A stretch of 64,000 bases of DNA from Eledone cirrhosa. Its lineage: Eukaryota. A program made the position numbers and the translations under genes. The stretch lies in contig OZ024753.1 of NCBI GenBank assembly GCA_964016885.1, forward strand, positions 33,728,001 through 33,792,000. The letters are read 5' to 3'. The notes beneath the pieces are model-generated. The model ran no database searches. It saw only the letters and a program-made list of their open reading frames with translations, and had not been told where the DNA came from. This document shows positions 54,844 through 58,335 of the stretch, in pieces (position 1 is the first letter of the stretch; each line of letters begins with the position of its first letter).

Positions 54844-54965
54844 AATATAGACATAGAATATTCGAAAATATTCTGTATGTTTATAATAAACATTTTGAAG
54901 ACCTAATCGCTATAGAATAGAATACGTCACGTATTACAATTAGATTCTCGATAAAAGCAAGGGAA

Positions 54966-55008
54966 GTAATCTACGCGTTTCATTCTCGTTAGAAATCATC
55001 AGGACTAC
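54966..55008 (-). ncRNA. Type I hammerhead ribozyme (array A, inverted arm)
   Basis: Reverse complement of 55343-55385. Confidence 0.88.
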
Positions 55009-55342
55009 ATATCCAGTGCTTTTATCGAGAATGACACAGCTAGAGACTTATAGAATACTTAGCTGTGTACAGGAACTGGTTTGAAAGAGCGGTTGCCGGT
55101 CCGGCAGAAATTAGAAATTGGAATAAATGCTCTGAAATAGCGATATATATGTGAATATAGACATAGAATATTCGAAAATATTCTGTATGTTTATAATAAA
55201 CATTTTGAAGACCTAATCGCTATAGAATAGAATACGTCACGTATTACAATTAGATTCTCGATAAAAGCAAGGGAAGTAATCTACACAGCTAAGTATTCTA
55301 TAAGTCTCTAGCTGTGTCATTCTCGATAAAAGCACTGGATAT

Positions 55343-55385
55343 GTAGTCCTGATGATTTCTAACGAGAATGAAACGCGTAGATTAC
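55343..55385 (+). ncRNA. Type I hammerhead ribozyme (array A, first of 10 + strand copies at 310-bp spacing)
   Basis: gtagtc-CTGATGA-t-ttct(aacg)agaa-t-GAAA-cgcg-TA-gattac. Helix I is extended by a perfect 16-bp attctcgataaaagca/tgcttttatcgagaat (55319-55407). Predicted cleavage after 55379. Confidence 0.9.
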
Positions 55386-58335
55386 TTCCCTTGCTTTTAT
55401 CGAGAATCTAATTGTAATACGTGACGTATTCTATTCTATAGCGATTAGGTCTTCAAAATGTTTATTATAAACATACAGAATATTTTCGAATATTCTATGT
55501 CTATATTCACATATATATCGCTATTTCAGAGCATTTATTCCAATTTCTAATTTCTGCCGGACCGGCAACCGCTCTTTCAAACCAGTTCCTGTACACAGCT
55601 AAGTATTCTATAAGTCTCTAGCTGTGTCATTCTCGATAAAAGCACTGGATATGTAGTCCTGATGATTTCTAACGAGAATGAAACGCGTAGATTACTTCCC
55701 TTGCTTTTATCGAGAATCTAATTGTAATACGTGACGTATTCTATTCTATAGCGATTAGGTCTTCAAAATGTTTATTATAAACATACAGAATATTTTCGAA
55801 TATTCTATGTCTATATTCACATATATATCGCTATTTCAGAGCATTTATTCCAATTTCTAATTTCTGCCGGACCGGCAACCGCTCTTTCAAACCAGTTCCT
55901 GTACACAGCTAAGTATTCTATAAGTCTCTAGCTGTGTCATTCTCGATAAAAGCACTGGATATGTAGTCCTGATGATTTCTAACGAGAATGAAACGCGTAG
56001 ATTACTTCCCTTGCTTTTATCGAGAATCTAATTGTAATACGTGACGTATTCTATTCTATAGCGATTAGGTCTTCAAAATGTTTATTATAAACATACAGAA
56101 TATTTTCGAATATTCTATGTCTATATTCACATATATATCGCTATTTCAGAGCATTTATTCCAATTTCTAATTTCTGCCGGACCGGCAACCGCTCTTTCAA
56201 ACCAGTTCCTGTACACAGCTAAGTATTCTATAAGTCTCTAGCTGTGTCATTCTCGATAAAAGCACTGGATATGTAGTCCTGATGATTTCTAACGAGAATG
56301 AAACGCGTAGATTACTTCCCTTGCTTTTATCGAGAATCTAATTGTAATACGTGACGTATTCTATTCTATAGCGATTAGGTCTTCAAAATGTTTATTATAA
56401 ACATACAGAATATTTTCGAATATTCTATGTCTATATTCACATATATATCGCTATTTCAGAGCATTTATTCCAATTTCTAATTTCTGCCGGACCGGCAACC
56501 GCTCTTTCAAACCAGTTCCTGTACACAGCTAAGTATTCTATAAGTCTCTAGCTGTGTCATTCTCGATAAAAGCACTGGATATGTAGTCCTGATGATTTCT
56601 ATCGAGAATGAAACGCGTAGATTACTTCCCTTGCTTTTATCGAGAATCTAATTGTAATACGTGACGTATTCTATTCTATAGCGATTCGGTCTTCAAAATG
56701 TTTATTATAAACATACAGAATATTTTCGAATATTCTATGTCTATATTCACATATATATCGCTATTTCAGAGCATTTATTCCAATTTCTAATTTCTGCCGG
56801 ACCGGCAACCGCTCTTTCAAACCAGTTCCTGTACACAGCTAAGTATTCTATAAGTCTCTAGCTGTGTCATTCTCGATAAAAGCACTGGATATGTAGTCCT
56901 GATGATTTCTAACGAGAATGAAACGCGTAGATTACTTCCCTTGCTTTTATCGAGAATCTAATTGTAATACGTGACGTATTCTATTCTATAGCGATTAGGT
57001 CTTCAAAATGTTTATTATAAACATACAGAATATTTTCGAATATTCTATGTCTATATTCACATATATATCGCTATTTCAGAGCATTTATTCCAATTTCTAA
57101 TTTCTGCCGGACCGGCAACCGCTCTTTCAAACCAGTTCCTGTACACAGCTAAGTATTCTATAAGTCTCTAGCTGTGTCATTCTCGATAAAAGCACTGGAT
57201 ATGTAGTCCTGATGATTTCTAACGAGAATGAAACGCGTAGATTACTTCCCTTGCTTTTATCGAGAATCTAATTGTAATACGTGACGTATTCTATTCTATA
57301 GCGATTAGGTCTTCAAAATGTTTATTATAAACATACAGAATATTTTCGAATATTCTATGTCTATATTCACATATATATCGCTATTTCAGAGCATTTATTC
57401 CAATTTCTAATTTCTGCCGGACCGGCAACCGCTCTTTCAAACCAGTTCCTGTACACAGCTAAGTATTCTATAAGTCTCTAGCTGTGTCATTCTCGATAAA
57501 AGCACTGGATATGTAGTCCTGATGATTTCTAACGAGAATGAAACGCGTAGATTACTTCCCTTGCTTTTATCGAGAATCTAATTGTAATACGTGACGTATT
57601 CTATTCTATAGCGATTAGGTCTTCAAAATGTTTATTATAAACATACAGAATATTTTCGAATATTCTATGTCTATATTCACATATATATCGCTATTTCAGA
57701 GCATTTATTCCAATTTCTAATTTCTGCCGGACCGGCAACCGCTCTTTCAAACCAGTTCCTGTACACAGCTAAGTATTCTATAAGTCTCTAGCTGTGTCAT
57801 TCTCGATAAAAGCACTGGATATGTAGTCCTGATGATTTCTAACGAGAATGAAACGCGTAGATTACTTCCCTTGCTTTTATCGAGAATCTAATTGTAATAC
57901 GTGACGTATTCTATTCTATAGCGATTAGGTCTTCAAAATGTTTATTATAAACATACAGAATATTTTCGAATATTCTATGTCTATATTCACATATATATCG
58001 CTATTTCAGAGCATTTATTCCAATTTCTAATTTCTGCCGGACCGGCAACCGCTCTTTCAAACCAGGTTCCTGTACACAGCTAAGTATTCTATAAGTCTCT
58101 AGCTGTGTCATTCTCGATAAAAGCACTGGATATGTAGTCCTGATGATTTCTAACGAGAATGAAACGCGTAGATTACTTCCCTTGCTTTTATCGAGAATCT
58201 AATTGTAATACGTGACGTATTCTATTCTATAGCGATTAGGTCTTCAAAATGTTTATTATAAACATACAGAATATTTTCGAATATTCTATGTCTATATTCA
58301 CATATATATCGCTATTTCAGAGCATTTATTCCAAT

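Follow-up and report, generated by a model that had tools for sequence, protein, structure and literature searches.

A two-armed hammerhead retrozyme of Eledone cirrhosa with the insertion anatomy of Penelope-type elements, probably copied from an RNA circle

The window analysed here is a 64,000-nucleotide stretch of the Eledone cirrhosa genome (assembly GCA_964016885.1, contig OZ024753.1, positions 33,728,001 to 33,792,000, forward strand), which carries, at window positions 54844 to 58335, an insertion made of 310-bp units with one hammerhead ribozyme each. We are highly confident that this repeat is a Penelope-mobilised retrozyme. Its units lie in two opposed arms that end at two different fixed sites of the unit, and this two-armed structure probably arose when a Penelope-type enzyme, primed from two DNA ends, reverse-transcribed one RNA circle in rolling-circle fashion. 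The most informative features of the insertion, its inverted arm and its fixed short and long ends, were overlooked in the preliminary description of the window, which had proposed a dispersed, very young, (TA)n-targeted non-coding hammerhead repeat; that proposal is supported by the genome-wide copies and TA junctions given below.

With unit position 1 set at the base after the predicted ribozyme cut (55380 in the window), the insertion is laid out as follows:

53166 to 54843, no strand: left (TA)n/(TA,CA)n target tract
54844 to 55284, minus strand: inverted arm, 1.42 units, outer end at unit position 128 (short), inner end at 308
55282 to 55284, no strand: 5'-to-5' inversion junction, a 3-nt overlap common to both arms
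55282 to 58335, plus strand: direct arm, 9.85 units, starting at unit position 213, outer end at 165 (long)
58336 to 59350, no strand: right (TA)n/(TA,CA)n target tract

A repeat scan of the direct array (55282-58335) returns a 310-bp period, 9.8 copies and 99% identity, the arm departing from the reference unit by substitutions at 56602 and 56687 and by one base inserted near 58066, and the inverted first 441 bases (54844-55284) are sequence-identical to direct units. The earlier count of about 11 near-identical 310-bp units thus holds for period and identity but not for a head-to-tail order throughout, since 54844-55284 is inverted. The hairpin sequences listed at that time are all found in the unit, and the statement that it has no meaningful open reading frame (ORF) was borne out: the longest ATG-started frame has 30 codons, and none exceeds this even when the unit is read as an endless circle. 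An ORF with reverse transcriptase (RT) and GIY-YIG domains is absent from the unit, and none lies between the arms in the loci mapped. The insertion ends are TA junctions, not terminal direct repeats, and there is no long terminal repeat (LTR) layout.

A motif scan places 11 type I hammerhead cores in the insertion, ten on the plus strand (starting at 55349 to 58140, every 310 bp) and one on the minus strand (starting at 55002). As first proposed, every unit has the full core (11 of 11). The scan finds it in one polarity of the unit only and puts the cut after 55379, at the position already predicted:

54966 to 55008, minus strand: inverted-arm hammerhead, core from 55002, predicted cut after 54972
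55319 to 55407, plus strand: hammerhead with its 16-bp helix I extension, 55319-55334 pairing with 55392-55407
55343 to 55385, plus strand: first plus-strand type I hammerhead, core from 55349, predicted cut after 55379

Helix I is GUAGUC/GAUUAC (6 bp), helix II a U-U mismatch plus 4 bp, and helix III the palindrome CGCG enclosed by an A-U pair; the predicted fold includes the 16-bp extension of helix I. The palindrome noted in helix III stands and the label "minimal" does not: in the terms of PMC4209133 (sources cited by accession or DOI are drawn on, here and below, for parts of their text) the motif belongs with the canonical metazoan type I hammerheads, its helix III being weak and palindromic, whereas the minimal form has no helix III. 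The suggested Rfam check gave no hammerhead match at E<=1 over 54000-59500 nor at E<=10 over 55200-55950, so that the ribozyme call rests on the motif scan and on comparison with relatives; Rfam microRNA matches were rejected as TA or hairpin noise under gathering scores. Five related units of older families align across the whole motif. With the structure drawn from the 310-bp unit, 14 of 23 pairs vary on both sides among these relatives, both-side changes occur in 7 of the 13 pairs tested in the helix I extension, and C3-G8 is replaced by U3-A8 in three of the six sequences aligned, bearing in mind that the sequences are related, so that the shuffle control is no probability. Proximal helix I is just 58% paired in this alignment, probably through a register shift.

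The 310-bp family has 35 variants that have reached fixation in one or more insertions. Eleven lie inside the 43-nt motif and none of these in the 16 bases of core and helix III (p about 0.006; whole-unit test p about 0.16), whereas six sporadic substitutions do strike those bases. Since fixed variants spare what sporadic changes hit, the ribozyme core appears to be under selection, and self-cleavage of the 310-nt unit transcript is predicted. Folded as a circle, the unit is more stable than its shuffles (z -3.8); the opposite strand reaches z -5.1, so this stability is not strand-specific.

For comparison among insertions we mapped 111 stretches, namely the window and 110 from contig C1 (10 picked by ribozyme, 100 by end pattern). 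Simple two-armed insertions account for 91 of them and a further six were set aside, either because one insertion spans two stretches or because several segments lie in one, so that the inverted arm typical of Penelope-like insertions is present in 91 plus 6 of the 111; of the other 14, some lack a second arm or have one too short for scoring, and some contain a gap. Counted genome-wide as exact pattern matches, the 43-nt ribozyme occurs 4,033 times (reversed pattern: 0), which excludes a single local satellite, and the long-end/TA junction at position 165 occurs 1,034 times. Extrapolated with the proportion of exact matches among 99 sampled stretches, the family comprises an estimated 17,500 units, distributed over about 2,000 insertions; sampled loci have a mean of 8.6 ribozymes. 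Pure TA extends for at least 6 nt at the start of both flanks in 77 of 90 loci; an informative direct target-site duplication was found in only three of the 90, as TA tracts mask duplications. Mobilisation of the unit in trans by Penelope-like machinery is supported.

The 310-bp unit also occurs in six sequencing runs of four organisms, and the contigs of four runs each show the head-to-tail joint, which is expected from tandem DNA and circles alike and is silent on expression. Runs X1, X2 and X6, from different organisms, contain the window haplotype only and no variant contigs; X3 has 600 contigs. A-to-I editing of the template was considered and rejected, the excess of fixed A>G over T>C (9 to 4, against 8 to 14 for sporadic changes) being not significant (p about 0.09) and equally explained by tolerance of G-U wobble. 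One variant, A276G, lies in a UAG context that is paired. It recurs across several haplotypes, and L059 and L064 are each mixed for it, possibly reflecting such editing, which is not significant overall.

The outer ends of the arms follow a strict rule. All 90 scorable simple two-armed insertions combine one short end with one long end, the rule holds in 10 of 10 insertions picked by ribozyme alone, and by eye the six set-aside stretches obey it too. Short ends lie at 128-139, mostly at 130 or 139 (the unit is TA-like there, hence the ambiguity), and long ends at 163-170, with 79 at 165; the long site is 25-35 nt beyond the short one. No outer end coincides with the ribozyme cut, and cut-site/TA junctions number 0 genome-wide. 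Independent choice of site by two complexes would give matching pairs in half of the cases; because all 90 are mixed, each DNA end appears to have its own site, and we infer one RNA, two active sites and one priming site per DNA end. Penelope-like elements are known to carry an inverted 5'-truncated copy, a 30-40 bp tail at one end and a (TA)n bias (PMC8557442, Craig et al. 2021), and the mixed pairs amount to just such a tail at one end only (90/90). Likewise, the Anolis Poseidon protein, a predicted dimer, acts on AT-rich DNA by cutting and extending both strands, and its reverse transcription begins downstream of the ribozyme, at two internal positions on either side of the genomic tail (PMC11167929, Frangieh et al. 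2024); by analogy, our short and long ends would match these two start sites. Two further parts of the unit are retained in sister families:

55438 to 55544, plus strand: region conserved in sister families, unit 59-165, ending in the short (128-139) and long (163-170) sites
55608 to 55613, plus strand: TATA-like hexamer, unit 229-234, retained in sister units where aligned

Unit 59-165 is likely the recognition and priming region for the RT, and the hexamer is possibly a promoter. At C1:105760988-105762500 lies an array in which every unit seems TA-expanded at the short site, the short-end pattern being spaced at 310 bp.

Other hammerhead families of the same genome serve as controls. An autonomous element with a 4,202-bp unit and a palindromic hammerhead (1,444 exact motif matches) has a GIY-YIG domain above cut-off and an RT-like RVT_1 match slightly below it. 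Its 21 two-armed copies, picked by ribozyme pairs, comprise 16 short-plus-long, two long-plus-long, one intermediate and two unscorable cases. A TATA-like word lies about 30 nt above the point, 71-75 nt upstream of the cut, at which the arms of this element often stop; spacing that matches this fixed 5' stop occurs in 9 of 29 listed pairs (hand count), and automated calls place both arms at the stop in eight short pairs that were chosen deliberately, although in L247, one of five short copies checked by reading, only one arm reaches it. Such short two-armed copies stop at what is likely the transcription start. In L233 the upstream ribozyme cut is the exact starting point of one arm and lies 8 nt from that of the other, a hint of cleavage in vivo. 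The family of this element, represented by L233, L246 and L172, is young and Penelope-like, and its two long frames measure 476 and 775 codons from stop to stop. The end rule also holds in 13 of 14 two-armed insertions of a 422-bp family, all picked by their long end, and by eye it is mostly obeyed in an older 321-nt sister family with at least 1,160 candidates, of which 40 were scored (95 matches to the sister unit) and 30 loci mapped for arms. The sister core is UUGAUAA, with U3-A8 for C3-G8 (L079:3318-3640, L101:4716-5519, L112:3119-3614, L182-L211).

Both arms of an insertion were very probably primed on one RNA. Their majority haplotype is the same in 58 of the 61 insertions in which both arms are covered at least twice, while 442 of 3,660 cross-locus pairs (12%) share a haplotype; with the ribozyme-picked loci left out, the figures are 51 of 54 and 8%. 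Insertions fall into 24 haplotypes, 14 of them seen once, and private variants can be fixed in every unit of both arms, such as a 2-nt deletion in all 22 units of L046 or C210A in all 17 units of L050. In two loci the arms even agree round by round: both arms of L092 start with two units of one haplotype and continue with another (15 units), and in L072 one variant occupies the same single round in both arms, which points to one template molecule.

The shape of this template can be read from arm lengths, inner ends and read-through of the cut site. Arms measure from 0.2 to about 48 units, the longer one being the long-end arm in 48 insertions and the short-end arm in 43. When each locus's own unit is used as reference, the 184 inner ends are spread evenly round the unit (chi-square p=0.32), with no pile-up at the cut (4 nearby, 7.1 expected) or at any other phase. 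As the autonomous element illustrates, a linear template does leave fixed inner ends, and the 310-bp family shows none. The 92 arm junctions consist of 57 overlaps of 1-6 nt, 11 blunt joins, 23 with extra bases and one overlap of at least 12 nt; at L047:1599-1870, 272 unrelated, GC-richer bases lie between the arms, either a captured template or a later insertion. Across 972 read-through cut sites the error rate is no higher than elsewhere (3 sporadic events per 7,616 bases within 4 nt of the cut, 149 per 285,867 beyond), and of the positions with sporadic indels, 0 lie within 4 nt of the cut and 32 elsewhere. Sporadic substitutions are mostly confined to a single unit (108 of 123). A fixed private variant calls for a single-unit bottleneck followed by amplification, and a monomer circle supplies both. 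The genomic footprints favour a circular monomer, and we think it rather likely that a closed monomer circle is the usual template.

An insertion would then arise as follows. Arrays would be transcribed into multimers, within which neighbouring hammerheads would pair via the CGCG palindrome and cut as dimers, releasing monomers for ligation, and the resulting circle, having a single ribozyme, would be slow to recut (PMC4209133, PMC7229834). This fits the published property of a weak palindromic helix III, which impedes cleavage of the monomer but lets units in tandem form an active dimer, and which supposedly leaves monomeric circles intact (PMC4209133). Both strands of a (TA)n tract would be cut by an RT/GIY-YIG protein of Penelope-like type, likely a dimer (the enzyme being modelled on that of PMC11167929). 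On a single RNA, one DNA end would be primed from the short site and the other from the long site; each RT would then travel round the template, completing between 0.2 and about 48 rounds before it halts at a random phase. The two cDNA ends would join, mostly via a 1-6 nt overlap, leaving the 5'-to-5' inversion. We give an evenly balanced judgement on the fullest form of this model, in which a Penelope-type RT dimer binds one closed 310-nt circle, gives each break end a fixed priming site of its own and, from both sides, runs round the circle tens of times, a dimer-only hammerhead cuts multimers while sparing the circle, and the same process explains the inverted-plus-tail structure of Penelope insertions generally.

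The strongest competitor keeps the twin priming but has an uncleaved linear multimer from a donor array as template, cutting being rare and circles a by-product or an occasional bottleneck. The in-register mosaics L092 and L072 speak for it, the clean read-through of cut sites suits it equally well, unprocessed RNA was the main substrate in vitro (PMC11167929), and cleavage was weak or absent in PMC4209133 and bioRxiv 10.64898/2026.07.22.740005. We nonetheless consider it unlikely: private variants fixed in all units of both arms need a single-unit bottleneck before amplification, only seven variant positions (in two loci) are mirrored between arms as opposed to 93 present in one arm only, and the inner ends do not pile up at any phase, unlike those of the autonomous element. 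A linear multimer from a fresh, uniform donor would look identical in any one insertion, and for this reason the alternative stays. Satellite-like growth, in which insertions of one to two units are lengthened arm by arm through unequal crossing-over or slippage, would account for the variant block duplications of the longest arrays (L046, L047, L043, L076). It is improbable as an explanation of the family, because in arrays of at most 20 units only 4 of 86 sporadic events are multi-unit, when a rough neutral model expects about half; because 31 of 87 loci have no sporadic change and still reach a median of 7.4 and up to 17.8 units; because length does not rise with divergence (rho -0.08); and because the older 321-nt sister family has shorter arms, of at most about 2.4 units. 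Gradual growth thus seems unable to explain arrays of up to 20 units, although a burst of expansion directly after insertion may be a variant that escapes these objections.

It is quite improbable that the template is a nicked ring, a cleaved linear monomer held by helix I whose nick the enzyme jumps in every round. The long helix I would keep such ends together, and fixed 1-nt insertions beside the cut in 7 of 104 loci indicate that the junction mutates at some stage; yet the three sporadic events near the cut include no indel, inner ends are not enriched there, and the missing excess of errors argues against nick jumping, unless the jump is error-free, as it may be. Finally, palindromes are known as a long-read artefact, and the inversion could in principle come from assembly, from fold-back, or from one polymerase folding back on its own cDNA, for which a mirror-image flank word in 3 of 90 loci might speak. 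That reading is exceedingly improbable, however, as the flanks are not mirrored in the other 87, the two arms have fixed end sites that differ, the longer arm may be the one or the other, which is impossible by fold-back copying, and the short-end/TA junction recurs in contigs of a separate run (possibly related to the assembly).

Several observations weigh against twin-primed copying of a circle by a Penelope-type enzyme, or limit its reach. Eight of nine Xenopus dimers tested did not cleave (bioRxiv 10.64898/2026.07.22.740005), and the Anolis ribozyme needed protein, cleavage not being required for insertion (PMC11167929). In our own data, the lowest-energy fold of the monomer (-31.9) differs from the hammerhead fold (-25.4 without helix III). 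L092 and L072 need a heterogeneous multi-unit template or a coordinated template switch, so that not every insertion derives from a monomer circle, and the arms of L059 and L101 differ. Arm lengths are weakly correlated (rho 0.25), which suggests that the two enzymes do not run in step. Multi-unit variants make up 11 of 30 events in arrays longer than 20 units, compared with the 4 of 86 in shorter ones, which points to later local duplication, meaning that the longest arms overstate the rounds of copying. Long-plus-long pairs exist in the 4,202-bp element (2 of 21, probably one event duplicated) and, by eye, in the 321-nt sister family (3-4 of 32 stretches). No partner sharing unit sequence or pseudo-LTR (pLTR) was found among 50 GIY-YIG loci examined from 10,597 candidates, a small sample, which yielded only sister retrozymes and a small hammerhead repeat. 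All comparison loci come from one contig, moreover, and 100 of the 111 stretches were chosen via the end pattern.

All features that could be tested, those of metazoan non-LTR retrozymes as well as those of Penelope-type insertions, are present in the element, which is by its sequence not autonomous and is a new family within the published class of animal non-LTR retrozymes. Like the 310-bp family, members of that class (PMC7229834, Cervera and de la Pena 2020) have tandem units of 150-450 bp with one type I hammerhead each, low GC and no ORF, and the axolotl HHR_Amex2 shares the U-U mismatch at the base of helix II. Circles and cleavage were shown for them by experiment, whereas the 310-bp family is known from genomic sequence; the opposed arms, the fixed short and long ends and the inter-arm haplotype identity are features that the main-text parts of PMC7229834 drawn on here do not describe. 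The proposal that circles template cDNA longer than one unit goes back to PMC4209133 and PMC7229834, the latter suggesting, as a hypothesis, that a long interspersed nuclear element (LINE) or Penelope-like RT primes on them and copies them into tandem cDNA, and the same ideas are reviewed in PMC6765202. The Xenopus retrozymes (Li, Clavereau, Pollet 2026, bioRxiv 10.64898/2026.07.22.740005) are likewise hammerhead repeats of about 300 bp arranged in tandem, and they occur together with Penelope-like elements. Penelope dependence is deduced there from co-occurrence and pLTR homology, and here from insertion anatomy, no pLTR homology having been found; also, the preprint suggests local amplification for the tandems, and our data argue against a gradual form of it. 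With Penelope-like elements the family has in common the inverted arm at the 5' side, the tail on one end only and the AT-rich target, and the passages of PMC11167929 and PMC8557442 covered here do not draw one start site per DNA end on a single RNA. Unlike these elements, the 310-bp unit has no ORF, multi-unit arms on both sides and no fixed 5' stop at its inner ends. In L1 twin priming, two target ends prime on one RNA and the inversion is joined by a short overlap, but each part copies its own stretch of a linear RNA and the second primer site varies; in the 310-bp family neither priming site varies, and the whole unit recurs many times in both arms.

We found no publication on the 310-bp family or on twin-primed rolling-circle Penelope copying in a screen of incomplete coverage (the family may be catalogued elsewhere, for example in Repbase/Dfam); the phrase "rolling circle reverse transcription" does not occur in the papers checked for it, and the word "ribozyme" is absent from the main text, so far as covered, of the Octopus vulgaris repeat annotation (PMC13282606). 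How tandem and inverted Penelope-like insertions form is named as an open problem in PMC8557442, and the step from retrozyme circle to tandem cDNA has been a hypothesis since PMC4209133 and PMC7229834. Thanks to the youth and polymorphism of the family and to its several units on both arms, each insertion preserves a round-by-round record of its template, and this record lets sequence alone separate circle, linear-multimer, nick-jumping and satellite-growth models. For a mechanism that is unproven, the genomic evidence appears unusually clear; two priming sites and a 310-nt substrate are now named for bench work, and a two-ended rolling-circle RT, if real, would be of interest for RNA-templated gene insertion tools.

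The window contains further repeats, several of them with hammerhead motifs. At 59351-61366, next to the insertion, lies a second, unrelated two-armed hammerhead repeat, with the 422-bp unit of the control family above, a palindromic CUAG helix III, an inversion at 60287, arms of 2.2 and 2.6 units and ends at unit positions 219 and 272; its long-end junction has 4,058 genome-wide matches. A small TA-tract insert at 51870-52030 bears a type I hammerhead with a stable 3-bp helix III (core 51980), and motifs resembling it occur in L167, L170, L175 and L176. The insert of about 95 bp at 49073-49168, also in a TA tract and with inverted ends of about 25 bp, is possibly a miniature DNA transposon or else a very small insertion of the two-armed type. 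An element of 530-600 bp is present in two similar copies with the same orientation in a TA tract (48159-48690 and 52572-53165), and pieces of it beside other loci suggest that it is probably a common short interspersed element. Hammerhead-core matches with a long helix II and AT-rich helices appear at 1119-1168 (plus strand) and 20545-20497 (minus strand), with relatives in L167, L171, L175 and L176. The stretch 39551-43627 is occupied by a G-rich, strongly skewed 22-bp minisatellite (185 copies at 96%).

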